A stretch of 15,800 bases of DNA from Promethearchaeati archaeon (GTDB lineage: Archaea > Asgardarchaeota > Heimdallarchaeia > JABLTI01). Location of the stretch: positions 1 to 15,800 of the forward strand of contig JAYEJY010000168.1 of the NCBI GenBank assembly GCA_034660795.1, given 5' to 3'. The notes under the pieces were generated by a model that worked only from the letters and a program-made list of their open reading frames with translations, did no database searches and was not told the DNA's origin. Positions 1,129 to 15,800 of the stretch are shown piece after piece. The first letter of the stretch is position 1. Each line of letters starts with the position of its first letter. Both the position numbers and the translations under genes were made by a program.

Positions 1129-2223
1129 ATGAATGAAATAACCATGTTAACAAATAAGAATTACAAAATTGTTGCACCCGGTCGTGTTTTCCTTTTTGGG
1201 GAGCATAGTGATTATTTAGGCCTTGATGTCATTGCTATGGCAATAAATCGGAATCTTACCATAAATATTGAACCAACAAATAATGAGTTCTTTGAAATAA
1301 ACTATTTGGATCTAGAAGAAAAAGACAACTTTCCCAAAAACGAAATTTTGACCTATCGTCATTCTCGAGATTATGTACGAAGTGCTTATAATGTTCTATT
1401 AAGACAAGACATTATTCCAAAAAGATCAGCAAAAATGACCATTTCTAGTGACATACCAATTGCTAGCGGATTATCAAGTTCTTCAGCTTTATCAGTTGCT
1501 GCTATTTTAGCTTTTAGTTCATTAGCTGGAACACCTTTAACTAAAAAAGAAATTGTAGGATATGCATTTGAAGCTGAAGTTAAAGAATTTGGGGAAAGCG
1601 GTGGAAAGATGGATCACTTTGCATCAGTTTATGGTGGAATTATTCATGTTACCTTCCAGCAACAAATTGAACTTCAAGAAATAAACCTTAATTTATCTGA
1701 TTTTGTAATTGGTGACTCAAAAGAGAAAAAAGCGGATACTGTTGAAACTATAAAGTATATTCGTACGATGGTTGAGAAAGGTTATCAATTATTATCAAAA
1801 GAAATTCTTTCATTTAATCATAGGACAACTAGTCTGAAGGAAGTCAATGAACATATTGATAAATTACCTAAGACTGTACAAAAATTAACTCTTGCTTCAT
1901 TAAAAAATAGGGATATAACTAAGAAAGCTCTTATTTTTTTACAATCAAATAATTTCTCTGCACAAAAGTTTGGTTCATTATTGAATCAACATCATGAAAT
2001 TTTGCGCAATGATTTTTCCCGTTCAACGAAAAAGATTGAAAGGATGATTCAAGCTGCTAAGCAAGCAGGAGCATTGGGTTGTAAAATAAATGGGAGTGGA
2101 GGAGGGGGGACAATGGTAGCTTACGCTCCTGAAAAAGTCGAAAATGTTATCGAAGCTATAGAAAATGTTGGGGGGAAAGCATTTATTGTTACGCAATCTA
2201 ATGGTGCTTCAATTGTTTGTTAA
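1129..2223 (+). CDS. GHMP-family kinase, galactokinase-like sugar kinase (mevalonate/galactokinase superfamily)
   Basis: All three GHMP motifs are present: APGRVFLFGEHSDY (motif I), DIPIASGLSSSSALSVA (motif II, phosphate loop) and KINGSGGGGTMVAYA (motif III). PGRV..GEHxDY and GESGGKMDHF resemble the galactokinase PGRVNLIGEHTDY and GxxCGxMDQ strings more than mevalonate kinase (recalled consensus). ATG at 1144 is an alternative start. Confidence 0.8.
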   Translation: MNEITMLTNKNYKIVAPGRVFLFGEHSDYLGLDVIAMAINRNLTINIEPTNNEFFEINYLDLEEKDNFPKNEILTYRHSRDYVRSAYNVLLRQDIIPKRSAKMTISSDIPIASGLSSSSALSVAAILAFSSLAGTPLTKKEIVGYAFEAEVKEFGESGGKMDHFASVYGGIIHVTFQQQIELQEINLNLSDFVIGDSKEKKADTVETIKYIRTMVEKGYQLLSKEILSFNHRTTSLKEVNEHIDKLPKTVQKLTLASLKNRDITKKALIFLQSNNFSAQKFGSLLNQHHEILRNDFSRSTKKIERMIQAAKQAGALGCKINGSGGGGTMVAYAPEKVENVIEAIENVGGKAFIVTQSNGASIVC

Positions 2224-4172
2224 TCATTGGACCAAGAATCTCGAAGAGGAATAATTTGGTTAAAAATAGGTTTATTTTTTTTAGAATCTTTTGTATCAAT
2301 ACAGAAATACCCAATGCGTTCAAATTGAAATCTAGACCCTTTTGACTCATTTATTAGAAAAGGTTCAACAAAACCAGTTGTTTTTTCTAGGGAATTTGGA
2401 TTAATGAAATCAGTGAAATCTTTACCCTTTACTTTTTCAAGAGGATTTGCTTTCAAAAATAATTGATTATATAATCGAATTTTAACTTCCTTTGAATACT
2501 TAGCAGAAATCCAATGAATAATTCCTCTTACTTCTGGATATTCTTCCCCTGTCTCATCTTTTGAATCTGGTTCATAAGTACAATGAATTTCTTTTATTTC
2601 ACCTGTTTTTTTATCTTTTATTGCTTTCTCAAATTTAATAATATAAGCATTTTTTAATCGAACAGCTTGGGATGGCGTTAATCGGTAATAATCCTTTGGT
2701 GCTTTTTCCATGAAGTCCTCTTTTTCTATGTATAATGTTTTAGTAAATTTTACTTTGCGAGTACCCATGGATCTCTTCTTTGGATGATTCGCTAGAATAA
2801 ATTCTTCCTCTTTGTCTTCTGGATAGTTAGTAAGTACTATCTTTAAGGGATTAATAACACCCATTACTCGAGGGCATTTCTTGTAAAGATCTTCTCGAAT
2901 AGCATTATTTAAAATTGATTTGTCAATAACCTTATCCCGTTTTGAAACCCCGATTGTATTGGTGAATTGCTTAATAGCGGCTGGTGTTACTCCTCTACGT
3001 CGAAGACCTGCAAGAGTTGGCATTCTTGGGTCATCCCATCCTTCAACATAACCTTCCTTAACTAATCGTATAAGTTTACTTTTACTCATAATTGTATGTG
3101 AAATATTTACTCGAGCAAACTCTATTTGGCGAGGATGGTGGATAGGTTCTCCATTTTCATCTGTTAATTGTTCAAGATACCAATTATAGAGTGGACGGTG
3201 ATTCTCAAATTCTAAGGTACATATTGAATGCGTAATACCTTCAATACTGTCTTCTAAGCCATGTGCCCAGTCATACATAGGATAGATACACCAATCTTCT
3301 TCACGATGTGGGTGTTTTTGGTGAAGAATGCGATACATAACAGGATCACGGAGATTTAAATTAGGTGAACTCATATCGATTTTTGCACGTAGTACTCGTG
3401 ATCCCTCCGGGAATTCTCCTTTCCTCATTCGTTTAAATAAATCAAGGTTTTCATCAATACTTCGATCTCTATAGGGGCTGTTTTTACCTGGTTTGGTCAA
3501 TGTTCCCCGATATTGACTTATTTCTTCCGCACTTAGATCATCAACATATGCTTTGCCTTTTTCAATCATTTGTATAGCATATTCGTACATTTGCTCGAAA
3601 TAATCAGATGCAAAGAAGACATTATCTCCACCATTTCTTTTTTCGTAAACCCCTAACCATTTGATATCTTTTATCATAGCCTTAACATATTGTTCTTCTT
3701 CAGTTATAGGATTTGTATCGTCAAATCGAAAGTTAAATAGCCCATCATACTCTTTGGCTAAAGTATAGTTCATAATAATGGATGTCGCGTGTCCGATATG
3801 AAGATAGCCATTAGGTTCTGGAGGAAATCTCGTATGAACTTTGCCGTCGAACCGACTTGTTTCCATATCTTTATCGATAATTTCTCTGATGAAATCTTTC
3901 CCTTGAGCTTCTTCCATGTCTTCTTCAAGTTTTTCAAGAATTTCAGGATATTTTTCTGAAGCAAGTTTTTCAATTTCTAGTTGTGCCATTTCATTAATTT
4001 GTAATACCATTTGCTCAACGATTTCTTTTACTGCTTGAGCTTTTTTATGGTATTTGGGGAAAGATCCCATAATAATTTGCATAACAGGACCAACTTTTGC
4101 CTCACCATGTTCTAAAGCATTTTGAATTGCATATTTTTCACAGAGATTTTTTATTGAATCCATGTTTAACAT
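2220..4172 (-). CDS. glnS: Glutaminyl-tRNA synthetase (class I) with an ~95-aa N-terminal appended helical domain
   Basis: HIGH motif in VHTRFPPEPNGYLHIGHA; KMSKS variant in HTIMSKSKL. Long collinear matches to the recalled E. coli GlnRS sequence: NFRFDDTNP, YRGTLTKPGKNSPYRDRS, RAKIDMSSPN..RDPVMYRI, WCIYPMYDWAHGLEDSIEGITHSICTLEF, HPRQIEFARVN, VEGWDDPRMPTLAGLRRRG, FQFERIGYFC and PLRDSW. These are GlnRS-type strings, not archaeal GluRS-type (RFAPNPSG). The second Met, at 4163, is an alternative start. Confidence 0.92.
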   Translation of the reverse strand: MLNMDSIKNLCEKYAIQNALEHGEAKVGPVMQIIMGSFPKYHKKAQAVKEIVEQMVLQINEMAQLEIEKLASEKYPEILEKLEEDMEEAQGKDFIREIIDKDMETSRFDGKVHTRFPPEPNGYLHIGHATSIIMNYTLAKEYDGLFNFRFDDTNPITEEEQYVKAMIKDIKWLGVYEKRNGGDNVFFASDYFEQMYEYAIQMIEKGKAYVDDLSAEEISQYRGTLTKPGKNSPYRDRSIDENLDLFKRMRKGEFPEGSRVLRAKIDMSSPNLNLRDPVMYRILHQKHPHREEDWCIYPMYDWAHGLEDSIEGITHSICTLEFENHRPLYNWYLEQLTDENGEPIHHPRQIEFARVNISHTIMSKSKLIRLVKEGYVEGWDDPRMPTLAGLRRRGVTPAAIKQFTNTIGVSKRDKVIDKSILNNAIREDLYKKCPRVMGVINPLKIVLTNYPEDKEEEFILANHPKKRSMGTRKVKFTKTLYIEKEDFMEKAPKDYYRLTPSQAVRLKNAYIIKFEKAIKDKKTGEIKEIHCTYEPDSKDETGEEYPEVRGIIHWISAKYSKEVKIRLYNQLFLKANPLEKVKGKDFTDFINPNSLEKTTGFVEPFLINESKGSRFQFERIGYFCIDTKDSKKNKPIFNQIIPLRDSWSND

Positions 4173-4449: not shown

Positions 4450-4788
4450 ATGTTGATTATAGTTACAAGAGAATATTCACTCTGGTTAGCACTGGGTTTA
4501 GTGCTTCTCGCCGTTATCCTACTATACCTATTGGGTCGGAGGATTGCCCCCTCCAAACCTACAGCAATAAAATGTTCTAGTTACGCTTGCGGAGAAGACA
4601 TGCCGGGCAAACATTCACAATTTTACCCGAATACCTTTATCTTTGCCATTTATTTCTCAATATTTGACATCTTGGCATTTGTCCTTGCAACCGCTATGAG
4701 TGTCTTTAAAGAAGGCCCTCAGTATGTGGCCGTTGCAGCAATATTTGCTGGAATAGGCCTATTAGGAGTGATCGTTTTACGACGGTGA
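4450..4788 (+). CDS. nuoA: NuoA-like membrane subunit (complex I subunit A / ND3 family), first gene of the operon
   Basis: 112 aa with three hydrophobic helices. The loop SSYACGEDMPGK matches the NuoA YECG loop, and FAIYFSIFDILAFVLA matches the NuoA TM2 FxxFDxE helix (Asp kept, Glu position is Leu). The position is the same as nuoA in nuo operons. Confidence 0.75.
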   Translation: MLIIVTREYSLWLALGLVLLAVILLYLLGRRIAPSKPTAIKCSSYACGEDMPGKHSQFYPNTFIFAIYFSIFDILAFVLATAMSVFKEGPQYVAVAAIFAGIGLLGVIVLRR

Positions 4789-4795
4789 AATACAC

Positions 4796-5296
4796 ATGGT
4801 TTTTAAAAAAACAGTTAATTGGGCGCGTGTAAAGTCACCATGGATCATCCACATAAATACCGGTGGCTGCAACGGATGTGATATAGAAGTTGTCGACGTT
4901 CTTACCCCAAGATATGACGTCGAACGATTTGGCATTGTTATTCAAGGCAGTCCACGACACGCGGATGTATTAGTGGTGACGGGACCAGCAACCCAGCAGA
5001 TGACGTCTCGATTAAAACGGTTATATGAACAGACACCAGATCCGAAATTTGTTGTCGCTATTGGCGCATGCGCTTGTAGTGGCGGGATTTTTAGACATAG
5101 CTATGTTGGTTGTAAAGGAATCGATACAGCCATCCCAGTTGATGTTTATGTACCTGGTTGTCCCCCTAAACCCGAGGCTATCATCTACGGAATAGCGCAA
5201 TTGTTAGCGAAACTACAGGGTAAAGAAACCCCAGTTATAACTCCTAAGGACATAAAGTCCGAAAAACTTGAACCCGATAAGGAGGTAGCTGTCTAA
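4796..5296 (+). CDS. Group 4 [NiFe]-hydrogenase small subunit / NuoB-family [4Fe-4S] subunit (MbhJ/HycG/EchC-like)
   Basis: 166 aa. [10 protein letters not shown] (Cys25/Cys28, nt 4868-4879), [12 protein letters not shown] (Cys92) and [11 protein letters not shown] (Cys122) supply the four ligands of the proximal/N2-type cluster. RYDVERFG and [12 protein letters not shown] are family-typical. The first two Cys are spaced CxxC as in hydrogenases, not adjacent CC as in complex I NuoB. Confidence 0.9.
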
Positions 5297-5298
5297 AA

Positions 5299-5817
5299 AT
5301 GAGTTCGTTAACAGCTGAACAAGAGGTAATTAACACCTTAAAAGATCATTTTGGAGATAAGATTCACGAAGCTGAAGCAACTCGTCCAAGAAGAATCCGA
5401 ATTAAAATCGCTGACCCTGACCAAGTTGAAGTGTTCAAATACGCAAAAGAATACATGAATGCATGGCATATGATTGCTATATCAAGTATTTACAAACCTG
5501 ATGGAACAATTGGTGTGGTTTATCATTTTGATATTAAACCACCTGTTAATGAAGGTCATAGCATTACCATGAATTTACATGTTGATTGCGAAGATAATGA
5601 GAACCCAAAACTTCAATCAGTAGTACCAGTGATACCTGGCGCAGGATTTTTTGAACGAGAAGCGTATGATTTAATGGGTATCAACTTCGAAGGACACCCA
5701 GATTTACGCAGACTTATTTTACCAGATGATTTTGAAGAAGGTGTACATCCTTTACGAAAAGACTTCCTTCTGGAAATCCAAAAGGAAGAAGCCAATAAAA
5801 AAGGCAAGAAAAATTAG
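5299..5817 (+). CDS. nuoC: NuoC-like 30-kDa subunit (MbhK/HycE-N-terminal type)
   Basis: 172 aa. The C-terminal signature [40 protein letters not shown] matches [17 protein letters not shown]...W.G.HPLRKD. A strong SD (AAGGAGGT, 5279-5286) precedes the ATG. Confidence 0.9.
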
Positions 5818-5819
5818 AG

Positions 5820-7100
5820 GTGACACAAGTGGCGAAAAAACAAATCAAAGTAACAGGTCCAGACACCGGTTGCGCGGCTTGTATGCCAAAGACACTTGAA
5901 ATTCCTCTCGGGCCGCAACATCCTGCTCTTAAGGAACCAACTCATTTTCTATTAGAAGTTGAGGGAGAAGTTATTGTTAATGCAACCCCTAGAATAGGAT
6001 ATGTCCATCGTGGCATTGAAAAACTCGCTGAAACAAAAACTTACTCTATGAACTTAACACTAGTTGAACGAGTCTGTGGAATTTGCAGTCATATCCATTC
6101 AATAACCTTGGCAAATGCTACTGAAACAGCACTTGCACAAAATGGATTTGAAATTCCCGAACGAGCACATTTTATTAGAACGATAGTTGCTGAATTAGAG
6201 AGAATTCACAGCCATGTCTTATGGTTAGGTGTCGCAGCACACGAAATAGGTTTCGATACCTTATTCATGTTATCATGGCGAGACCGTGAATTAACAATGG
6301 ATTTGTTAGAAGATATCTCAGGAAACAGAGTTAATTACGCCATGAATGAGATTGGCGGATGTCGGAGAGATATAAGTCAACAACAAAGTGAAAAGATAAA
6401 GAAATACATGGAAATTACTGAACAACGAATGGAACGTTATAAAGAGATTTGCTTAAAAGAAGAAACAATAAAAAGACGGACAAGTGGAGTTGGTGTCCTT
6501 AATACAGCAAAAGCAAAAGAATTATGTGCTGTAGGACCAACTGGTCGAGCATCTGGTATAGAAACGGATATTCGACATGATGATCCCTATTCAGCATATG
6601 ACCTCGGTTTGCAAGATATTTTCAAAGTTGTAACATTTGATACCAATGATGTATTTTCCAGAGTAGTTGTTCGTATAATTGAAACAATTGAGGCAACAAA
6701 ATACATTCGATGGTTGCTTGATAATATGCCTGAAGGTGATGTCTTTAAACGACCTCCTCGCAAAGTACCAGAAGCAAAAGTACTCTCCCGGACAGAAGCT
6801 CCAAGAGGAGAACTTATTCATTATCTCTGGTCAAATGACAGTGACAAACCATATCGATTGAAAATAACTACCCCAACACTCAACAATATCCAATCTGTGG
6901 CTGAAATGCTTCGAGGCGATTATATTGCTGATTCAACAATTACCCTCGCTTCAATAGATCCCTGTTTTAGTTGTGAAGATCGTTCTATAACTATTATCAA
7001 CAAAGATCGACGAAAACCAGAAATAACAACTTTAACAGAATCAGAATTACGACGACGAAATAAGAAATGGCATGAAAAAAATGGATGGGATAAAAGATGA
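5820..7100 (+). CDS. Group 4 [NiFe]-hydrogenase large (catalytic) subunit at the NuoD position (NuoD/HycE/MbhL/EchE family)
   Basis: N-terminal Ni-Fe motif ERVCGICSHIH (Cys codons 6075-6077 and 6084-6086). C-terminal motif DPCFSCEDR (6957-6983), followed by 38 further residues. GPQHPALKEPTHF is the hydrogenase-type loop. The start is GTG at 5820 or, more likely, GTG at 5829, which lies 5 nt downstream of SD AGAGGTGA (5816-5823). ATG at 5883 is also possible but has no SD. Confidence 0.9.
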   Translation: MTQVAKKQIKVTGPDTGCAACMPKTLEIPLGPQHPALKEPTHFLLEVEGEVIVNATPRIGYVHRGIEKLAETKTYSMNLTLVERVCGICSHIHSITLANATETALAQNGFEIPERAHFIRTIVAELERIHSHVLWLGVAAHEIGFDTLFMLSWRDRELTMDLLEDISGNRVNYAMNEIGGCRRDISQQQSEKIKKYMEITEQRMERYKEICLKEETIKRRTSGVGVLNTAKAKELCAVGPTGRASGIETDIRHDDPYSAYDLGLQDIFKVVTFDTNDVFSRVVVRIIETIEATKYIRWLLDNMPEGDVFKRPPRKVPEAKVLSRTEAPRGELIHYLWSNDSDKPYRLKITTPTLNNIQSVAEMLRGDYIADSTITLASIDPCFSCEDRSITIINKDRRKPEITTLTESELRRRNKKWHEKNGWDKR

Positions 7101-8188
7101 GTAATATTGTTTGGTGGATAACGACGGTTTTAGGGATATTATTTTTCCCTGGTATTGGATTTTGTATCTCTCTCGCACTATTTGATGAATGGTTAGATCG
7201 TAAATTTTACGCAGCTCTGCAAGATCGAATAGGTCCCCTACATACAGGTTTTAAGGGAATAATGCAACCTCTTGCTGATTTCTTGAAACTGATGGCTAAA
7301 GAAGATGTTGAACCAACAGTAGCCGATAAATGGGGTATGCGATTAACCGCAATATCCGCGTTAATTATACCTTTAGTCTCAATGCTCTTTATGCCAATTA
7401 TTGATACAACTGGGCTCATATCTTTTGAAGGTGACCTTTTGTTATTGGCGTTTCTAGGTACCTTATTAGCTATAATTATCTATCTTGCAGGCTGGTTCTC
7501 AGCCAATAGATTAGCTATGCCTGGAATGATGAGAGCGATCACTCAGTTATTGAGTTATGAAATTCCTTTGATGATATCATTGTTTGCTGTAGCATTACGA
7601 ACACAGTCATTATCAATTGCTGGCATAGTTGATTGGCAATTAACACATCACAGACCAACAATCTTCAGTCTTCCAATATTTTTGATGTTCGGTATATTCT
7701 TAATTTCGACCCAAGCAGAATTAGAACGAAGTCCTTTTGATATCCCAACAGCTGAAACAGAAATTGTTGGAGGTTGGGAAGTTGAATATTCTGGAAAGAA
7801 ACTTGCGTTTTTCAGATTAGGCTCTGATTTACAAATGATTTATGGTGCTAGCATCGGAACAGCATTATACTTAGGCGGACCCACTGGTGTTGAAATGTGG
7901 ATACCTGCATTTGCAAATACTCTTGCAACAACCCCAGGATATCATGTCTGGCCAATACTTTACTATACAGCAATGTTTATGCTGAAAACTTCGTTAATTG
8001 TACTTGTATTTGCAACAATAAGAGCACTCATGGCACGTTTACGAATTGAACAATTCTTAGAATTTTCATGGAAATGGCTTATTCCTATTGGACTTGGACT
8101 TATCATAGTAATCTTCTTCTGGGTTCCATGGATGGACGACATTTTATGGGACAGATTTGAGAATCTTGTAGAAGGAGTGACAACTTAA
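7097..8188 (+). CDS. nuoH: NuoH-like membrane subunit (ND1 / HycD / MbhM family)
   Basis: 363 aa, polytopic. LDRKFYAALQDRIGP...GIMQPLADFLKLMAKEDVEP is the NuoH signature (ER.....Q.R.GP...G..G.LQP.AD..K...KE...P). ELERSPFDIPTAETEIVGGW matches the conserved AE.E.EL.GF-type loop. The start overlaps the upstream stop (ATGA at 7097-7100). Confidence 0.9.
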   Translation: MSNIVWWITTVLGILFFPGIGFCISLALFDEWLDRKFYAALQDRIGPLHTGFKGIMQPLADFLKLMAKEDVEPTVADKWGMRLTAISALIIPLVSMLFMPIIDTTGLISFEGDLLLLAFLGTLLAIIIYLAGWFSANRLAMPGMMRAITQLLSYEIPLMISLFAVALRTQSLSIAGIVDWQLTHHRPTIFSLPIFLMFGIFLISTQAELERSPFDIPTAETEIVGGWEVEYSGKKLAFFRLGSDLQMIYGASIGTALYLGGPTGVEMWIPAFANTLATTPGYHVWPILYYTAMFMLKTSLIVLVFATIRALMARLRIEQFLEFSWKWLIPIGLGLIIVIFFWVPWMDDILWDRFENLVEGVTT

Positions 8189-8204
8189 ACAGGTGATATG
8201 AAAA

Positions 8205-8621
8205 ATGACACGACCTGCAGTAATAATTTGGGAAGCGTTAAAGAATGCATTCAAATGTAAGAAAGCAACCATAGATTATCCTTATGAAGAAGGTGTTAAA
8301 CCCGAAAAAGGTTTACGAGGAGCTCATCGCTTCGAAATCGAGAAATGCATCGGTTGCAGTAGATGTGCACGCGTATGCCCAGCTGACGCTATAGAAATGG
8401 TTCATTCAGACATCACTAGAACAAATAAACGACCCGTCATTAATCTCAGTGAATGTATTTTCTGTGCTCTCTGTGCAGATAATTGTCCAAAAGACTGTTT
8501 ACATATGACTGATTACATTGAACTTTCTGCTTTTAACCCAGAAGAAATGATTATTTATCAAAAAGAACCTCCAAAAGAAGAAATTTCTGAGGAGGAGGAA
8601 AAGAAGGAGAAATCAACCTAA
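8205..8621 (+). CDS. nuoI: NuoI-like 2x[4Fe-4S] ferredoxin subunit (MbhN/HycF type)
   Basis: 138 aa with two canonical motifs, CIGCSRCARVCP and CIFCALCADNCP. SD AGGTGA at 8191-8196. Charged Glu/Lys C-terminal tail. Confidence 0.9.
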   Translation: MTRPAVIIWEALKNAFKCKKATIDYPYEEGVKPEKGLRGAHRFEIEKCIGCSRCARVCPADAIEMVHSDITRTNKRPVINLSECIFCALCADNCPKDCLHMTDYIELSAFNPEEMIIYQKEPPKEEISEEEEKKEKST

Positions 8622-8638
8622 GAGTACCTTCTAGAAAA

Positions 8639-8971
8639 ATGGATGTGCAAAAAAATATGGATTTTAATTCAATATTATTAATAATCTTACTCGCGTTGGT
8701 AGTTCTTGCTGCCATTTTTGCTATAGAGCTCAAAGATTTGATTTATGCAGCCATTGCATTAGGAGTTCTAAGCATTGCACTAGCGGGTGTTTTTTGGATA
8801 TTAAATGCTCCTTGGGTTGCACTCTTCCAACTGATGATTTATGGAGGGGCTGTAACAATCCTCCTTATAACAACTGTTGCTCTTACTGAGCGACGAGAAA
8901 CAGGTGAACCTGTGGAGGATCTTGACGATATAGTCCCAACCAGAGAAAAACAGGAGGAATCAAGTGTATGA
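8639..8971 (+). CDS. nuoJ: NuoJ-like membrane subunit, N-terminal half (TM1-3; J1)
   Basis: 110 aa. LIYAAIALGVLSIALAGVFWILNAPWVALFQLMIYGGAVTILLITTVAL is collinear with the recalled E. coli NuoJ ALLYLIISLLAISGVFFSLGAYFAGALEIIVYAGAIMVLFVFVVMML, including the Y(A/G)GA helix-3 signature. ATG at 8657 is an alternative start. Confidence 0.7.
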   Translation: MDVQKNMDFNSILLIILLALVVLAAIFAIELKDLIYAAIALGVLSIALAGVFWILNAPWVALFQLMIYGGAVTILLITTVALTERRETGEPVEDLDDIVPTREKQEESSV

Positions 8972-9369
8972 AACCAAGAACATCTCAAATACTCAGTTTT
9001 GTGGTCGGGATTGTGCTAGCACTTAGCGTCTACGGCTTCATGATGTATGGTCTAAGAGATTTTAATGATCCAAATAACACTGATGATAGTTTTATAGGTT
9101 TAACTGATAACGACGACGATGACCGAGATAATTTTCCCTTTTTGAATTTAACAAATCTTTCTTATCATGAACTTGGTGAAAAGATGGGTGAATTGCTATG
9201 GAAAACACGAGCGATTGATGTTATTATTTTAGGCATCATATTAATTGTCGCCTCAGAATCAGCATCTTCAATAGTTAAAGGTATTGAAGAACAATGTGCG
9301 GAATTTCGTCAAGAATTATGTGAATCCAGTGAATACCTTGTTGTAACTGAAAAAGAGGAGGAGCAATAG
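8968..9369 (+). CDS. NuoJ-like membrane subunit, C-terminal half (J2), with a long acidic loop
   Basis: 133 aa: one N-terminal TM, a ~70-aa acidic loop (TDNDDDDRDNF), then LGEKMGELLWKTRAIDVIILGIILIVA. That last stretch resembles the NuoJ C-terminal LGxxLFTxYxxPFExxSxLLLxA segment. ATGA overlap with J1, and SD CAGGAGGA at 8951-8958. The assignment rests on position plus a weak motif. Confidence 0.5.
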   Translation: MKPRTSQILSFVVGIVLALSVYGFMMYGLRDFNDPNNTDDSFIGLTDNDDDDRDNFPFLNLTNLSYHELGEKMGELLWKTRAIDVIILGIILIVASESASSIVKGIEEQCAEFRQELCESSEYLVVTEKEEEQ

Positions 9370-9371
9370 CA

Positions 9372-9704
9372 ATGGATATACCATTTGATAACATTTATGT
9401 GATATTAGGATTTTCAGTGGCATTGTTAGTAATTGGTGTCTATACTTTTGCAGCAAAGAAAAACATGATCAAATATTTGATCGCCATTGAACTTTTGTTA
9501 GATGCAGCTCATCTTAATTTTATTGCATTCTCAAATATTTTTGGTGCTACAGGTGAGTTTGTCGATCCACTACCTCATGCTGTCGTAACTGTCAGTATTT
9601 GTATTGGTGGATGTGTTGCTGGCGTTGCGTTAGCCTTGATAATTCAAGCCTATCGCGTACACGGTACGATAAATTCTCAGAAATTATCCAACTTGAAATA
9701 TTAG
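9372..9704 (+). CDS. nuoK: NuoK / MrpC (MnhC)-family small membrane subunit
   Basis: 110 aa, 3 TM. KKNMIKYLIAIELLLDAAHLNFIAF matches the NuoK/MrpC TM2 (conserved Glu present). DPLPHAVVTVSICIGG..ALALIIQAYR matches the MrpC-type DPLPQALILTAIVI....YR string. SD GAGGAGGAG lies upstream. Confidence 0.85.
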   Translation: MDIPFDNIYVILGFSVALLVIGVYTFAAKKNMIKYLIAIELLLDAAHLNFIAFSNIFGATGEFVDPLPHAVVTVSICIGGCVAGVALALIIQAYRVHGTINSQKLSNLKY

Positions 9705-9720
9705 GAGTGTATCAAAAAAA

Positions 9721-11847
9721 ATGTTCTCACAATATACCCCTATTATTAATTGGGCTGTACCTTTTGCTGGAGCTATTATTACTCCAATAATCGGTTTTAT
9801 CGCTGGTAAAATTAAGGAAGGAAAAACACAAGAAGTGTTATATTTTATCCGTAATTGGTTTGCAACCTTTACAGCAGCTATTTCCTTTATCTTTAGTTTA
9901 TCAATGGTTCCCGATGTTTTTGGAGGCTCTGGTGGAGAAACAGTCTGGGCTACATGGTTCTCCGGGCTACTCGATAAAAACCTGAATCCTATGATTGTTG
10001 AGTTTGGCACTTTAGTTGATCCGTTATCTGTCATGGTAGCGTGTTTCGCCTCAGGTGTAGGCTTAATGATTATGATTTATGGAGTTGGTTATATGAAAGG
10101 AGACAAACACCTTGATAGATATTGGTTTGAAATGCAAGCCTTTATTGGTGGGATGGTTCTCCTTGTAATGTCAAATAATCTCTTCATGACCTATGTTGGT
10201 TGGGAGATTGTTGGATTCTGTTCATATGCATTAATCGGGTACTACTTTAATAAAAAAGAAAAACAAGACCCTAGGGAATTAACACTACAGGAAGAAACTG
10301 AAGGTGATTACAATTCTCATGCAGGATTGAAAGCATTCATCACAACACGTATAGGTGATGTTATGATGCTCATGGGTATACTCATAGTTTTCTTCTATGC
10401 TGGCACCTTTAGTTATATGGATTTACTCGCTGATCTTTCCTGGATAACAGCACTGAAAAACAATAATATTTTGATCTTAACAGCTATCCTAATTTTTGGA
10501 GGACCTATTGGCAAATCAGCTCAATTCCCATTACAGGTTTGGTTGCCAGAAGCCATGGCAGGTCCAACAACAGTTTCTGCGCTAATTCACGCTGCAGCAA
10601 TGGTAAAAGCAGGTGTATACATGGTGACACGAACCTTCCCAATGTGGTATTTAGGACTGCATGATCTTGGTTTTGAAAATTTGAAGATATACTTCTTATT
10701 TGTTGCTGCTATTGGTGGTTTTACTGCCTTCATGGCTGCTACCATGGGTACAGCTTCACTAGAATTGAAGAAAGTCTTAGCTTTCAGTACCATCAGTCAA
10801 TTAGGCTATATGTTTATGTCTCTCGGTGTTGGTGGACTTATTGAACCAGAAGCTGGTGTCGTAGATTTTAACGGTTTCTTTGGTGGAACATTTCACATGC
10901 TTTCTCATGCAATGTTTAAGGCACTCCTGTTCTTATCTGCAGGTGCTGTTCTTCATGCTGTCCATAGTAAATATATGGATCGTATGGGAGGCTTGCGAAA
11001 AGATATGCCAAAAGTCTTTTGGCCGATGCTTGTAGGTGGTCTTTCGCTTGCAGGTATACCGCCGTTAGGAGGCTTTTTCAGCAAGGAATCAATCTTTGCC
11101 ACATGTCACCACTTGGGATCACAAGGCAATCCAGTAGGTTGGATATTCTTAGCCGTTGGAGCTATTGCAGCTGTTTTAACCTTATTCTACACTATTAGAT
11201 TCCTCGCTTTCACTTTTAGCGGAGAAAAATCAGAGAATGTACTCGAAGTTGAAGAACACCAAGGCGGTCATTTACACAAAACACACCCAACAATGTGGAT
11301 TCCACTAATATTATTAGCAGCTGGAACAATTGTAAGTGGATTTATTGGACCATTTGTAGAACAATTCATGAGTTCAAATACTTGGTTTAGTGCTGCAACA
11401 ACCTTTACTGTAGAAGAATTTCATCTGAATTATGGGCACTATCTTGCTCATACATTTGGCTCATGGACCTTTTACGGAGTAACCTTAGGCATTATTGCAG
11501 TAGGCGGTATCCCGGCATATTTCTTATTTGTTCAAAGAAAATGGGATCTCAAGAAACTAAAACAAGAAAATAAATTCATCAATGGACTTTACACAATCTT
11601 ACATCGTCGATGGTTTATCAATGATTTCTACTACATATTATTACGAGGATTTAAGAAATTTTCAGAATTAGCATACGAATATTTCGACTTACGAGTAATA
11701 GACCAATTAAATTACATTATAGCATCTGGTACAATGAAATCAGGCGAAGTTTTCCGAAAGACGCATACAGGAGTCCTGTCTGTGAACTTTATCTATCTAT
11801 TATTTGGCATAATGGCCATTTTAATAATATTACTATTTGCACTCTAG
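9721..11847 (+). CDS. nuoL: Antiporter-like subunit, NuoL / MrpA-N type, with C-terminal lateral-helix region
   Basis: 708 aa. Core motifs WEIVGFCSYALIGYYF, GKSAQFPLQVWLPEAMAGPTTVSALIHAAAMVKAGVY and FHMLSHAMFKALLFLSAG. The C-terminal RRWFINDFYY..FDLRVIDQLNY..RKTHTGVLSVNFIYLLFG plus a final TM matches the NuoL-specific amphipathic helix and anchor region. Confidence 0.92.
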   Translation: MFSQYTPIINWAVPFAGAIITPIIGFIAGKIKEGKTQEVLYFIRNWFATFTAAISFIFSLSMVPDVFGGSGGETVWATWFSGLLDKNLNPMIVEFGTLVDPLSVMVACFASGVGLMIMIYGVGYMKGDKHLDRYWFEMQAFIGGMVLLVMSNNLFMTYVGWEIVGFCSYALIGYYFNKKEKQDPRELTLQEETEGDYNSHAGLKAFITTRIGDVMMLMGILIVFFYAGTFSYMDLLADLSWITALKNNNILILTAILIFGGPIGKSAQFPLQVWLPEAMAGPTTVSALIHAAAMVKAGVYMVTRTFPMWYLGLHDLGFENLKIYFLFVAAIGGFTAFMAATMGTASLELKKVLAFSTISQLGYMFMSLGVGGLIEPEAGVVDFNGFFGGTFHMLSHAMFKALLFLSAGAVLHAVHSKYMDRMGGLRKDMPKVFWPMLVGGLSLAGIPPLGGFFSKESIFATCHHLGSQGNPVGWIFLAVGAIAAVLTLFYTIRFLAFTFSGEKSENVLEVEEHQGGHLHKTHPTMWIPLILLAAGTIVSGFIGPFVEQFMSSNTWFSAATTFTVEEFHLNYGHYLAHTFGSWTFYGVTLGIIAVGGIPAYFLFVQRKWDLKKLKQENKFINGLYTILHRRWFINDFYYILLRGFKKFSELAYEYFDLRVIDQLNYIIASGTMKSGEVFRKTHTGVLSVNFIYLLFGIMAILIILLFAL

Positions 11848-11863
11848 GAGGATTATCAAGACA

Positions 11864-13369
11864 ATGTTCAATACAACGTTATTAATATCAATAATTATCT
11901 TATTAGCAGCACCGCTGATAATCTTCATTATTGGTAATTGGAATGCTGATGTAGCAAAATGGTTGGCGTTTGCAGCAACACTAATTGCTGGTGTATTCTT
12001 TGCTCTCACCTTAGGTGATGTATTGAATTTAGGAATACATGAAGAAAGCTGGCCTTGGATGGACTTTATTGTTGGAAGCATTAATTTCAAAATCAGTTTT
12101 TCATTAATTGCTGATAATTTGAGCTTCCCTATCGTGGCAATCATTTTCATCTTGTCCTTAGCAGCAGTAATGTATAGCTTTAGCTATATGAAAGAAGAAA
12201 AAAATCTTGGAGTATATTATGCTTTACTGGTTCTCTACATCGCTGGTATGGTTGGTGTAGTGTTAGCTGGTGATCTTGTCCAATTTTACATTTTCTGGGA
12301 ATTAATGTTAATTCCATCATACTTCATTATTGCTCAATGGGGTTCAAAACCAAATAGTGTAAAAATTGCTTTCAAATATTTCATCTTTACTCATATTGGT
12401 GCAATGGCTATCCTAGCTGGCATAGGTGGTTTATGGGCCTATGGTTCACCAGATGGTAGTTTTACTATTGCAACACTCGATATGAGTTCCACACCCGCAA
12501 TTGCAATAAGATTACTGACGATCCTTTTCCTTGTAGGTTTTAGTGTCAAGATGGCAATCTTTCCAATTCACTCTTGGCTACCAGATACTCACAGTGAAGC
12601 ACCCACTCCAATAAGCGCCATTTTGTCTGGTGTAATGATCGAAACAGCCGCATATGGTATTCTTCGAATATGCACCGGAGTTATTGGTGAACCTGGTATG
12701 GGTGGATGGATGCGTTGGGTCTTAATCGGATTAGCGGTCTTCACAATGATGTACGGTGGAATCATGGCTTTGGCTCAAAAAGATACAAAGAGACTCTTTG
12801 CATATTCTTCAATATCGCAAATGGGTTACATATTCTTTGGTTTAGGCACATTTACCATGTTTGGATCAACTGGTTCAATGTTTCATATTGTCAGTCATGC
12901 CTTAGCAAAAGGCACTTTGTTTATGGTCGCTGGTATCTTAATGACACAAATCGGACATCATAAAGGACGAAACATCGAAAAACTAGGTGGTCTAGGATTG
13001 AAAATGCCTATTACAGCAATTGTTGCGATGATTGCAGCCTTGAGTCTTGCTGGCACACCACCACTAGCTGGCTTTATGTCAGAATGGATAATCTTCCAAG
13101 GTGGTTTACAAGCAAATAGTACTCTTGGCATAATCGCTGTAATCTTTGCAATACTTTCGACGGCCTTAACTGCTACTTATGTCTTGCTTTTCCTAAAGAA
13201 TGTCTTTTTAGGACCTGTGAAAGAAGAGTACGAAGACATTACAGATCCAAGTCCTTACATGTGGGTGCCTTTAGCAATAATTGCTATATTGAGTTTTGTT
13301 GTCGGCATCTTCCCAAATACAGTGCTAACATTCGTAACCGAAGTGGTTGCGAAAATTTTCGGAGCGTAG
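11864..13369 (+). CDS. nuoM: Antiporter-like subunit, NuoM / MrpD type
   Basis: ATG at 11864 is preferred over the ORF-track TTG at 11837, because SD TAGGAGGA (11845-11852) sits 11 nt upstream and the TTG start would overlap nuoL. Motifs: FYIFWELMLIPSYFII, VKMAIFPIHSWLPDTHSEAPTPISAILSGV, FAYSSISQMGYIF and FHIVSHALAKGTLFMVAG. Confidence 0.9.
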   Translation: MFNTTLLISIIILLAAPLIIFIIGNWNADVAKWLAFAATLIAGVFFALTLGDVLNLGIHEESWPWMDFIVGSINFKISFSLIADNLSFPIVAIIFILSLAAVMYSFSYMKEEKNLGVYYALLVLYIAGMVGVVLAGDLVQFYIFWELMLIPSYFIIAQWGSKPNSVKIAFKYFIFTHIGAMAILAGIGGLWAYGSPDGSFTIATLDMSSTPAIAIRLLTILFLVGFSVKMAIFPIHSWLPDTHSEAPTPISAILSGVMIETAAYGILRICTGVIGEPGMGGWMRWVLIGLAVFTMMYGGIMALAQKDTKRLFAYSSISQMGYIFFGLGTFTMFGSTGSMFHIVSHALAKGTLFMVAGILMTQIGHHKGRNIEKLGGLGLKMPITAIVAMIAALSLAGTPPLAGFMSEWIIFQGGLQANSTLGIIAVIFAILSTALTATYVLLFLKNVFLGPVKEEYEDITDPSPYMWVPLAIIAILSFVVGIFPNTVLTFVTEVVAKIFGA

Positions 13370-13383
13370 GAGATGATTAGAAA

Positions 13384-14910
13384 ATGAATATCTACTATAT
13401 CTTACCAATAATAATCCCGATCGCTGGTGCATTAGTTATTGCAATCCTTGGACGATTTGCGAAAAAACAGACCTTAGGTTGGATGTTAGGATATGCCTCG
13501 ATTGCTATCTTATGCCTTCTTACTTCCTTAGGGCTCATTATTTCTTTCTATCCACAAATAGGAAGTATTGATCCCTCAGAGTTAAATTGGAAAATTGGTG
13601 GGCTTATAGGTTCAACCTTTAAAATGGATACTATTACCTGGTGGCTTAGCTTAATATTCACCTTACTGGGAACTATTGTTGCTATCTATTCTATCCGTTA
13701 TATGGACAAAGATGATCGATTAGATAGATATTACTTACTCTTACTCATTCTTATTGAAGGAATGATTGGTGTAGTAATGTCAGGTGACTTGTTCACTTTG
13801 TTCATCTTCTGGGAAACAATGAGCCTTTCTAGTTATGTACTCGTTTCCTTCCGAAAAGAGCAACCAGATCCCATTGAAGCAGGTATAAAGTATCTCTTCA
13901 TGAGTGCTTTTGGAAGTATCAGTCTATTATTCGGTATGTCATTAATATATGGTACAACTGGAACATTGAATATTGCTAGTATCGCACAAATTTATCTTAC
14001 GAAAATTTCCGCATATGGCTTATCAAGTGTTCATTATGTCATCATAACAGCCCTTATTATTGGGTTTGGTGTGAAAGCTGCTATTGTACCTTTACATACA
14101 TGGCTTCCCGATGCTCATCCAGCCGCTCCCTCCGGAATCAGTGCAATGTTATCAGGCGTAGTCATTATGACTGGAATGTATGGAATGATTTATACCTTAA
14201 CCTCATTCTTTGCTCCAAGTATTGATACGCTGGGCTTTGTATTACTCTGGATAAGCATTGTAACAATGTTTGTTGGGAACTTGTTAGCATTACGACAAAA
14301 TGACTTGAAACGACTTTTAGCTTTCTCAACCGTATTGAATGTCGGTTTTATTCTATTCGGTTTAAGCATGGGGTCAGCTGGAATTAATGCTGATGCTTCT
14401 GCTTTAGGTGTTCAAGGTGGATGGTTCCATATTTTCACTCATTCCCTTGGAAAAGGTCTGGCATTTCTTTGCGCTGGGGCGATTCTCTATCGATTTAAAG
14501 AACGTGGTTTAGACAAACTGGAAGGCATTGGTAAAAGAATGCCATGGACTATGGGTGCTCTCACAATTGCACTCTTAAGTCTTGCCGGGGTACCACCATT
14601 ACCAGGATTCTGGTCGAAATTGAATATGGTCATCGCTGCAGTACAATCAGGGAATTGGCAATATTATGTTGGTGTTGGGTTATTCTTGCTTTCAAGCGTA
14701 ACATCAGTAGTTTATTACTTGATTGTTCTTCAACGCATGTGGTTTAAAGAACCAAGCGAAGAAGTGCAAAATGTTCAAGAAACACCACTTGAAATCATCA
14801 TTCCACTCTATGTTTTAGTAATAGTGATGGTTTTAGTGTCAATTATTCCTAATACCTTTTCAGCAATCGCTGCGAATGCAGCAAGCGATTTACTCAGTTT
14901 TATTCCATGA
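13384..14910 (+). CDS. nuoN: Antiporter-like subunit, NuoN type
   Basis: 508 aa. Motifs: LFIFWETMSLSSYVLVSF, EAGIKYLFMSAFGSISLLFGMSLIYGTTGTLNI (NuoN-type EA..KYF....LFG.SL.YG.TGS), VKAAIVPLHTWLPDAHPAAPSGISAMLSG and HSLGKGLAFLCAG. Ends with tandem stops TGA TAG (14908-14913). Confidence 0.9.
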   Translation: MNIYYILPIIIPIAGALVIAILGRFAKKQTLGWMLGYASIAILCLLTSLGLIISFYPQIGSIDPSELNWKIGGLIGSTFKMDTITWWLSLIFTLLGTIVAIYSIRYMDKDDRLDRYYLLLLILIEGMIGVVMSGDLFTLFIFWETMSLSSYVLVSFRKEQPDPIEAGIKYLFMSAFGSISLLFGMSLIYGTTGTLNIASIAQIYLTKISAYGLSSVHYVIITALIIGFGVKAAIVPLHTWLPDAHPAAPSGISAMLSGVVIMTGMYGMIYTLTSFFAPSIDTLGFVLLWISIVTMFVGNLLALRQNDLKRLLAFSTVLNVGFILFGLSMGSAGINADASALGVQGGWFHIFTHSLGKGLAFLCAGAILYRFKERGLDKLEGIGKRMPWTMGALTIALLSLAGVPPLPGFWSKLNMVIAAVQSGNWQYYVGVGLFLLSSVTSVVYYLIVLQRMWFKEPSEEVQNVQETPLEIIIPLYVLVIVMVLVSIIPNTFSAIAANAASDLLSFIP

Positions 14911-14990: not shown

Positions 14991-15800
14991 CTAATTAGGT
15001 ACTTGTTTTTCTGATGTTTTTTGTCGATTTCTTCTTGTAATAGTTCTTACAAAACGTACTATCAATACTATTCCACCAAGTAACCCTGGAAAAATAACAT
15101 TAACTAAAGTTTGGAGGATGGATAGATTCAATGCATTATGTATCGATATAAACATAATTTTACTAAAAAGCTCTCTAAGAATAGTATCACGTATTCCTAT
15201 CCCACTGATGCTGAAAGGAAAAGCTATAGCTGATAACGCACCTATTGCTAATATCCCGCTGATTAGTAAAGGTTGGAAAGTACTTTCACCAAAAGCTAGA
15301 AGAAAGAAAACACCTTGGAAACCAAGCACTATCCAGAAAAGCACTGAGAAGATAGTTAAGAAGAAGTAATTTCGTATTTTAAATTTCTTTTGAAAAACAA
15401 AAAAATCATTAGATATGTCATCAGTTTGTATCAAAATTTTATTTTGTCTACTTTTTTTCTTAAATGCTCTAGCAATAAATTTAACAAAAAATGTGATTAT
15501 TTTACGCGTGAACTTTTTGTTAAAAATAAAAATTATTATTATTACAAAAAGTACAAAACCAATTACTATACCAAGAAAAATCCACCAAGAAAGATCAAGA
15601 AAAACAACCTTTGTTAATAAAAAAGGAAAGGAAACCAGTAAAATAATTAAAATTCCTCCCAAATCCAACAATCTATCGAAGACAACTGAAAAAATAGTAC
15701 TTCCAATTTTTGCTTCGTCATTATTTTTTGATAAATAAAAAGCTCTTAAAATATCACCAACTTTTGCGGGTGTTAGACTAGAGCCAAAGGTGCCTATCAA
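14991..15800 (-). CDS. Polytopic membrane protein, possibly UPF0104 / LPG-synthase-TM (flippase-like) family; N-terminus outside window
   Basis: The ORF is open to the window edge, so the ORF-track M is a TTG at the boundary and not a real start. It has at least 6 hydrophobic helices and a basic C-terminal tail. LTPAKVGDILRAFYL and FPFSISGIGIRDTIL resemble the paired P.x.GG.G..E helix-loop motifs of UPF0104-type proteins. The family call is tentative. Confidence 0.6.
   Translation of the reverse strand: MIGTFGSSLTPAKVGDILRAFYLSKNNDEAKIGSTIFSVVFDRLLDLGGILIILLVSFPFLLTKVVFLDLSWWIFLGIVIGFVLFVIIIIFIFNKKFTRKIITFFVKFIARAFKKKSRQNKILIQTDDISNDFFVFQKKFKIRNYFFLTIFSVLFWIVLGFQGVFFLLAFGESTFQPLLISGILAIGALSAIAFPFSISGIGIRDTILRELFSKIMFISIHNALNLSILQTLVNVIFPGLLGGIVLIVRFVRTITRRNRQKTSEKQVPN

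Follow-up and report, generated by a model that had tools for sequence, protein, structure and literature searches.

A complex-I-like operon of a Heimdall-type archaeon encodes a predicted large subunit, with a HycE-like C-terminal peptide, of a group 4 [NiFe]-hydrogenase

Complex I is thought to have descended from membrane-bound [NiFe]-hydrogenases. Here we analyze the gene at the nuoD position of a complex-I-like gene cluster on a 15.8-kb contig (JAYEJY010000168.1) of a metagenome-assembled genome (MAG) named 'Asgard group archaeon'; the window analyzed is this entire contig. Enzymes of the kind that we find here have been described before. In Bathyarchaeia, Hfo (HydDB subgroup 4g) is an Fpo-like, 11-subunit hydrogenase whose D subunit carries the L1 and L2 motifs (Loh et al., 2021; PMC7886697). 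For Heimdallarchaeia, the available part of Appler et al. (2024; 10.1101/2024.07.04.601786) calls NuoD 'a catalytically active [NiFe]-hydrogenase' within a complex-I-like architecture and lists the hydrogenase subgroups 4j, 4m, 4p, and 4q, and the available part of Valentin-Alvarado et al. (2024; PMC11291895) reports group 4 hydrogenases from Asgard archaea that are complex-I-like and have an HL helix. Because these three reports describe such enzymes, our finding is a correct rediscovery of a known class. Judged from its sequence, the open reading frame (ORF) at 5829 (or 5820) to 7100 very probably encodes the unprocessed catalytic large subunit of a membrane-bound, complex-I-like [NiFe]-hydrogenase of group 4, with a C-terminal tail that would be cut by an endopeptidase encoded elsewhere in the genome. 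Our additions are modest: the family-wide homology of this tail to the HycE peptide, the absence of an operon hycI from Asgard loci, the presence of three antiporter-like subunits in the clade, and a clade-specific N-terminal CxxC motif together with C211 and C236.

The comparison covered 92 related loci with flanks of about 10 kb, of which 18 are Asgard and 74 come from bacteria and other archaea. The Asgard loci (L001-L007, L009, L011-L016, L019, L022, L043, and L067 of our set) span Heimdall-type, Loki, Freya, Jord, Borr, Baldr, and Promethearchaeota. The window resembles the Asgard enzymes, as these are presented in the available text of Appler et al. and Valentin-Alvarado et al., in its lineage (Asgard group or Heimdallarchaeota are the names that NCBI gives to the window protein and to its relatives), in having a NuoBCDI arm without NuoEFG, in the intact Ni-Fe ligands of a NuoD predicted to be catalytic, and in its complex I-like membrane arm with an HL-type NuoL. 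It differs in that the same portion of Appler et al. describes a shortened membrane arm, whereas the clade to which the window belongs encodes L, M, and N, with a full-length NuoL of the ND5 type. Neither the C-terminal peptide nor the N-terminal CxxC of the clade is discussed in the text of either paper as far as it is available. With Hfo the window shares a nuoABCDHIJKLMN-type gene order, the lack of FpoFO and NuoEFG, and a D subunit with L1 and L2 (PMC7886697). The large subunits of the Bathyarchaeial loci in our set, however, are just 52-57% identical to the window protein, and the Bathyarchaeial proteins have no N-terminal CxxC extension. The two Bathyarchaeial loci L054 and L059, which have the nuo-type gene order, encode tails of 29-30 amino acids (aa), show no detected counterpart of the ORF that we call J2 below and, unlike the Heimdall-type loci, have an adjoining hycI.

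The large-subunit gene had been placed at 5820-7100 on the forward strand. Its end holds, with the stop codon at 7098-7100, but its start should probably be moved. The ORF has 426 aa when read from the GTG at 5820, and we use this numbering for all residues of the large subunit. That first GTG falls within the Shine-Dalgarno sequence GAGGTGA (5817-5823), which lies 5 nt upstream of a second GTG at 5829. Because of this arrangement, the 423-aa length of the NCBI protein (MEA2070776.1, named 'nickel-dependent hydrogenase large subunit'), and the homologue N-termini reading MAKKKIKV, the true start is probably GTG 5829, giving a protein of 423 aa.

The protein matches the Pfam families Complex1_49kDa and NiFeSe_Hases, and its top PDB sequence matches found with HMMER are MbhL of Pyrococcus furiosus (6cfw_L, E=3.8e-83) and HycE of Escherichia coli (7z0s_E, E=2.7e-76), followed by Nqo4 of Thermus thermophilus (1.3e-58). 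Translation of 5820-7100 recovered every motif string quoted in the original prediction at its given position. The L1 motif ERVCGICSHIH (6066-6098, with CGIC at 6075-6086) contains C86, C89, and H93, and the L2 motif DPCFSCEDR (6957-6983) contains C382, C385, and R388, an Arg predicted to occupy P1 where the chain is cut. In the HMMER alignment, ERVCGICS stands against ERMCGICS of MbhL and DRVCGICG of HycE, and DPCFSCEDR against DPCLSCTDR of MbhL and DPCYSCTDR of HycE; the two cysteine pairs are in register with the L1 and L2 columns, with no offset. The beta1-beta2 loop GPQHPALKEPTHF (5910-5948) carries E39, the Glu of a KEP sequence, which pairs with MbhL E21, a proposed proton relay. An AlphaFold2 (AF2) model of the large subunit reached a predicted local distance difference test score (pLDDT) of 80.9, and its top Foldseek matches were 7z0s_E (HycE) and 6cfw_L (MbhL) at 36-41% identity, compared with 26-31% for NuoD and complex I 49-kDa subunits.

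The agreement in these motifs goes well past anything that chance would give. In an alignment of 36 sequences, covering 51-81% identity, C86, C89, C382, C385, E39, H93, R329 (the Arg of a PRG motif), D380, and R388 are invariant, as are P381 and D387 of the L2 motif. The four Ni-Fe cysteines, E39, H93, R329, and R388 are also invariant within the 24-member Heimdall-type clade, and each of the 92 related loci encodes L1, L2, and a tail 25-50 aa long. The invariance of the cysteines and accessory residues over 92 loci at about 50% identity indicates that the Ni-Fe site is under purifying selection.

These results bear on an alternative in which the protein is a degenerate, non-catalytic NuoD or FpoD of a ferredoxin:quinone or ferredoxin:methanophenazine oxidoreductase and its cysteines are ancestral relics. 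The gene order is that of Nuo and Fpo, the best-scoring NCBIfam models are, by name, NuoD and FpoD (each scoring below its cut-off), and close homologues are entered in some sources as 'NADH dehydrogenase subunit'. Complex I NuoD (Nqo4, 49-kDa) also has the same fold as the window protein (TM-score of about 0.77), and the order of the operon and its complement of membrane subunits agree as well. It differs, however, in having no Ni-Fe cysteines, a quinone-binding His and Tyr, no assembly peptide, and a partner NuoB with tandem Cys. In the window protein the HMMER alignment shows Lys38 in place of the Nqo4 quinone-site His38 and Gly87 in place of Tyr87, and the maturation tail is kept. The partner subunit encoded by the nuoB-like gene (4796-5296), a hydrogenase small subunit by its match to MbhJ (6cfw_J, 5.2e-54), has the ligands C25, C28, C92, and C122 and the hydrogenase-type sequence GGCNGC with its CxxC; complex I PSST instead reads GLACCAVE, with the tandem CC of cluster N2 and a 3-residue gap. 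The four [4Fe-4S] cysteines of this NuoB-like subunit are conserved in 83/83 loci. With the catalytic residues invariant as described, the quinone site replaced, and a hydrogenase-type NuoB next to it, a degenerate NuoD is scarcely credible. The original prediction of a nickel-dependent, catalytically competent hydrogenase subunit rather than a degenerate NuoD agrees well with the aligned ligands, the replaced Nqo4 His and Tyr, and the GGCNGC partner.

We then consider the C-terminus. Directly after R388 the ORF continues for 38 residues, SITIINKDRRKPEITTLTESELRRRNKKWHEKNGWDKR (6984-7097), and the original prediction had likened this tail to the C-terminal pro-peptide of HycE. HycI cuts HycE after Arg537 and frees a 32-aa peptide (PMC7654741). 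The HycE tail given in the original prediction was almost exact, the true peptide beginning MTVVDVRKKKSKVVPYKELE. The deposited MbhL chain 6cfw_L terminates precisely at the Arg aligned with R388, and the alignment with HycE runs on into the HycE tail, up to residue 409 of the query. A tail following the L2 Arg was found in all of the 120 best database homologues. A tail-only profile built from 101 unique post-Arg tails gave the E. coli HycE 32-aa peptide 18.2 bits, a score reached by 0 of 1000 composition-matched shuffles (mean -0.9, standard deviation 2.4, maximum 7.0). This difference indicates that the 38-aa tail is homologous to the assembly peptide that HycI cleaves from E. coli HycE, so that the pro-peptide assignment holds up by profile homology as well as by position. 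The tails have a common layout in which a hydrophobic strand precedes a stretch that is either basic or W-x-W, with (E/Q)LRRY..W(Y/H) after it; the HycE tail likewise has the hydrophobic strand, the basic stretch, and (E/Q)L(E/R)RY. In the AF2 model the tail forms strands at 389-394 and 401-406 and a helix at 407-421, and these strands fit the C-terminal beta strand published for immature [NiFe] large subunits (PMC7654741).

HycE, the hydrogenase 3 large subunit in the formate hydrogenlyase complex (7z0s), thus resembles the window protein in its aligned L1 and L2 motifs, its Arg at the cleavage position, and its tail. It differs in its N-terminal fusion to a NuoC-like part, in belonging to a formate-oxidizing complex with a smaller membrane arm, and in a core identity of 36%. 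A further difference concerns maturation, in that E. coli hycI lies in the hyc operon, unlike the situation in the window.

Several observations on maturation weigh against our reading of the tail as an endopeptidase substrate. A six-frame search of the 15.8-kb contig with hidden Markov models (HMMs) at E<=0.1 found no hycI, hyp, or Ni-transport gene. The 10-kb flanks of the Heimdall-type loci likewise showed no gene for an endopeptidase, a Hyp protein, or a Ni transporter, and hyp genes were absent from the 10-kb flanks of all 18 Asgard loci. With an HMM built from database matches to the HycI adjoining the Thermoplasmatota-type homologue L008, a HycI-like ORF was detected in the flanks of 53/92 related loci, where it nearly always closes an operon with the order (M M N) J1 K A B C D H I HycI. 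By lineage, this gene was present in 53/74 non-Asgard loci and 0/18 Asgard loci (Fisher p=1e-8). No Asgard-named protein appeared among the best 120 matches listed for the L008-adjacent HycI as query, and none among the best 120 listed for a profile of four Bathyarchaeia-type HycIs, both lists holding only Thermoplasmatota, Methanomicrobia, or Bathyarchaeia names; since only the best 120 matches are covered, both searches are uninformative rather than negative. A literature search found no paper containing both 'HycI' and 'Asgard'. In addition, the AF2 confidence for the tail is moderate (pLDDT 52-70).

The enzyme could accordingly be a hydrogenase in which the Asgard tail is retained as a structural or assembly element or is cut by an unrelated protease. 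The lack of a nearby hycI at all 18 Asgard loci, when most other lineages have the gene within the operon, is what such an arrangement would produce. Moreover, the sequence LRxY..W[YH]..GWKK in the distal tail is highly conserved within the Heimdall-type clade, and the AF2 model shows regular secondary structure in the tail. Yet the tail is homologous both to the tails at hycI-bearing loci and to the cleaved HycE peptide, and the deposited MbhL chain stops at the aligned Arg. Endopeptidase genes often lie far from the gene of their substrate, and a single T. kodakarensis protease matures both group 3b and group 4d enzymes (PMC7654741). The maturation factor hyaD is among the expressed hydrogenase-associated genes of Atabeyarchaeia/Freyarchaeia in the available part of Valentin-Alvarado et al. 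(2024; PMC11291895). These last two reports lend indirect support to a protease gene elsewhere in the genome, and we consider retention of the tail or its removal by an unrelated protease unlikely. Proteolytic maturation is well supported for the family; since neither the contig nor the 10-kb flanks of the 18 Asgard loci hold hycI or hyp, we infer rather than observe it in the present organism, and the term 'protease-matured' in the original prediction should be read in that sense.

The maturation that we favor for the large subunit would follow the scheme of its relatives. The tail after Arg388 would hold the site open for the insertion of Fe(CN)2CO and Ni by Hyp proteins. An endopeptidase of the HycI/HyaD family, with its gene at another place in the genome, would then cut the tail after the Arg before the small subunit docks.

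The large subunit is encoded by the fourth gene of a nuoA-B-C-D-H-I-J1-J2-K-L-M-N cluster (4450-14910), all on the forward strand, in which NuoEFG and FpoF, the input modules for NADH and F420, were not found. The cluster begins with a nuoA-like gene for a membrane subunit of 112 aa (4450-4788; Pfam Oxidored_q4, 7e-09), and the nuoB-like gene is followed by a nuoC-like gene for 172 aa (5299-5817; Pfam Complex1_30kDa, 1e-28). Downstream of the large-subunit gene lie a nuoH-like gene (7097-8188; Pfam NADHdh, 5e-76) and a nuoI-like gene for a 2x[4Fe-4S] ferredoxin subunit (8205-8621; Pfam Fer4 families). All eight cysteines of NuoI are conserved in 6/6 Heimdall-type loci and in at least 75 of 76 others, and together the NuoB-like and NuoI subunits keep all twelve Fe-S cysteines. 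The stop codon of nuoD overlaps the ATG of nuoH (ATGA, 7097-7100), and the nuoJ1/J2 and nuoL/M boundaries overlap too, a pattern that fits translational coupling of the genes in the operon. The same 12-gene order occurs in six other Heimdall-type contigs; in Heimdallarchaeota MAGs with this cluster, the large subunits are 74-80% identical to that of the window.

The membrane arm combines features of Mbh and of complex I. The gene J1 (8639-8971) encodes the N-terminal half of NuoJ and is MbhD-like (Pfam Oxidored_q3 and MbhD; PDB matches to NdhG residues 10-90 and to MbhD). The following ORF, J2 (8968-9369), encodes 133 aa with two transmembrane helices and a D- and N-rich acidic loop. It gave no PDB match and no credible Pfam match, and it is kept at the same position in all Heimdall-type loci. 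From this position we infer that J2 is the second half of a split NuoJ and MbhE-like. Next come a nuoK-like gene (9372-9704; Pfam Oxidored_q2, 3.5e-20) and genes for three antiporter-like subunits, namely nuoL (9721-11847, 708 aa), nuoM (11837-13369; NCBIfam NDH_I_M, 329 bits, above cut-off), and nuoN (13384-14910; NCBIfam MrpD and NuoN families). NuoL aligns with NdhF (6hum_F) over residues 92-706 (1.3e-78) and with M. smegmatis NuoL over 88-702, whereas MbhH scores just 1.7e-34. Because the alignments with NdhF, NuoL, and ND5 reach residues 702-706 of 708, NuoL is assigned to the ND5 type and, on this evidence, has the C-terminal region that forms the lateral helix in ND5/NuoL.

P. furiosus Mbh (6cfw) resembles the window in several respects. 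The large subunit finds its best PDB sequence match in MbhL, at 41% identity and with the same Cys ligands, proton-relay Glu, and terminal Arg; the NuoB-like subunit matches MbhJ best, and the split NuoJ with its MbhD-like first half is common to both. Mbh differs in having a single antiporter-like subunit, MbhH, with an Mrp-type module and another gene order, and the NuoL of the window is far nearer to ND5/NdhF than to MbhH.

Given this subunit composition, the complex would most likely function as a ferredoxin-linked, ion-pumping hydrogenase. Reduced ferredoxin would dock on NuoI, and its electrons would pass along three [4Fe-4S] clusters, via NuoB, to the Ni-Fe site, where H2 would form from protons, or the reverse. 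Via NuoH, A, J, and K the redox energy would reach the three antiporter-like subunits, which would move H+ or Na+. The direction could also be the opposite, with H2 uptake and the ion gradient driving the reduction of ferredoxin, as Loh et al. proposed for the 11-subunit Bathyarchaeial Hfo, whose genes are ordered in the same way (PMC7886697). In principle, group 4 enzymes can run either way, and three antiporter-like subunits would bring a large coupling stoichiometry. Against this, the available text of both Appler et al. (10.1101/2024.07.04.601786) and Valentin-Alvarado et al. (PMC11291895) prefers ferredoxin oxidation with H2 evolution for the Asgard enzymes, and the window holds no indicator of direction such as Wood-Ljungdahl genes. 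We regard operation in the H2-consuming direction as a real but doubtful possibility.

The Heimdall-type proteins are set apart by additional cysteines. The large subunit of the window starts with an extension of about 25 aa specific to the clade (consensus KKxIKVxxPxTGCxxCxPxT), in which a CAAC sequence (5871-5882) provides C18 and C21. This N-terminal CxxC was found in 20/20 full-length clade proteins and in 0/96 other homologues; counted by locus, it is present in 6/6 clade loci and in 0/82 others. C211 and C236 of the large subunit are enriched in the clade as well, and so are C106 of NuoB and C97 of NuoC. The N-terminal CxxC and the clade-enriched cysteines could form an extra metal site or serve as a maturation handle. 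A pairing of the CxxC with the extra Cys of NuoB or NuoC is speculation, because the AF2 monomer leaves the extension disordered and unplaced (pLDDT <50). Taken jointly, these features would allow the Heimdall-type enzymes to be read as a distinct variant, with a full membrane arm, an ND5-type NuoL, a possible extra metal site involving the N-terminal CxxC and C211/C236, and a tail matured without an operon HycI, through another protease or through retention. This combined reading appears improbable to us; if true, the Heimdall-type enzyme would be a closer intermediate between hydrogenase and complex I than any yet described.

Other genes on the contig and in the relatives deserve brief mention. 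Upstream of the nuo cluster, on the reverse strand, lies a gene for a glutaminyl-tRNA synthetase (GlnRS; 2220-4172), which scores 678 bits with TIGR00440 glnS (cut-off 426). It is of the bacterial type, with an E value of 6e-191 against E. coli GlnRS and of about 1e-105 to 1e-111 against the yeast and human enzymes, and no Pfam family matches the additional stretch of about 88-110 aa at its N-terminus. Since most archaea lack GlnRS, its presence on an archaeal contig probably reflects horizontal acquisition. A flippase-like gene (LPG_synthase_TM; 14991-15800, reverse strand) comes immediately downstream of nuoN, in the opposite orientation, and is likewise placed in L001, L003, and L006, the three Heimdall-type relatives with called genes; this placement may merely be conserved synteny. 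An ORF of 153 aa with WD40 repeats (200-661) is found at the contig edge. One of the relatives, L003 (GCA_035528535.1, DATKYH010000063.1), encodes a protein (P0004) 77% identical to the window protein within the same 12-gene operon. The operon has the same neighbors as in the Heimdallarchaeota MAGs, and the NCBI label is 'candidate division Zixibacteria bacterium'; probably this contig was put into the wrong bin or was misclassified.

The evolutionary point that this enzyme makes is already in the literature for its class, to which the window adds one more member and small details of maturation. In the archaeal lineage nearest to eukaryotes, the gene order of complex I and an arm with three antiporter-like subunits occur together with what appears to be a live Ni-Fe site, a combination that illustrates the transition from hydrogenase to complex I. 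The enzyme is also relevant to the question of whether H2 was made or taken up by the archaeal ancestor of eukaryotes.

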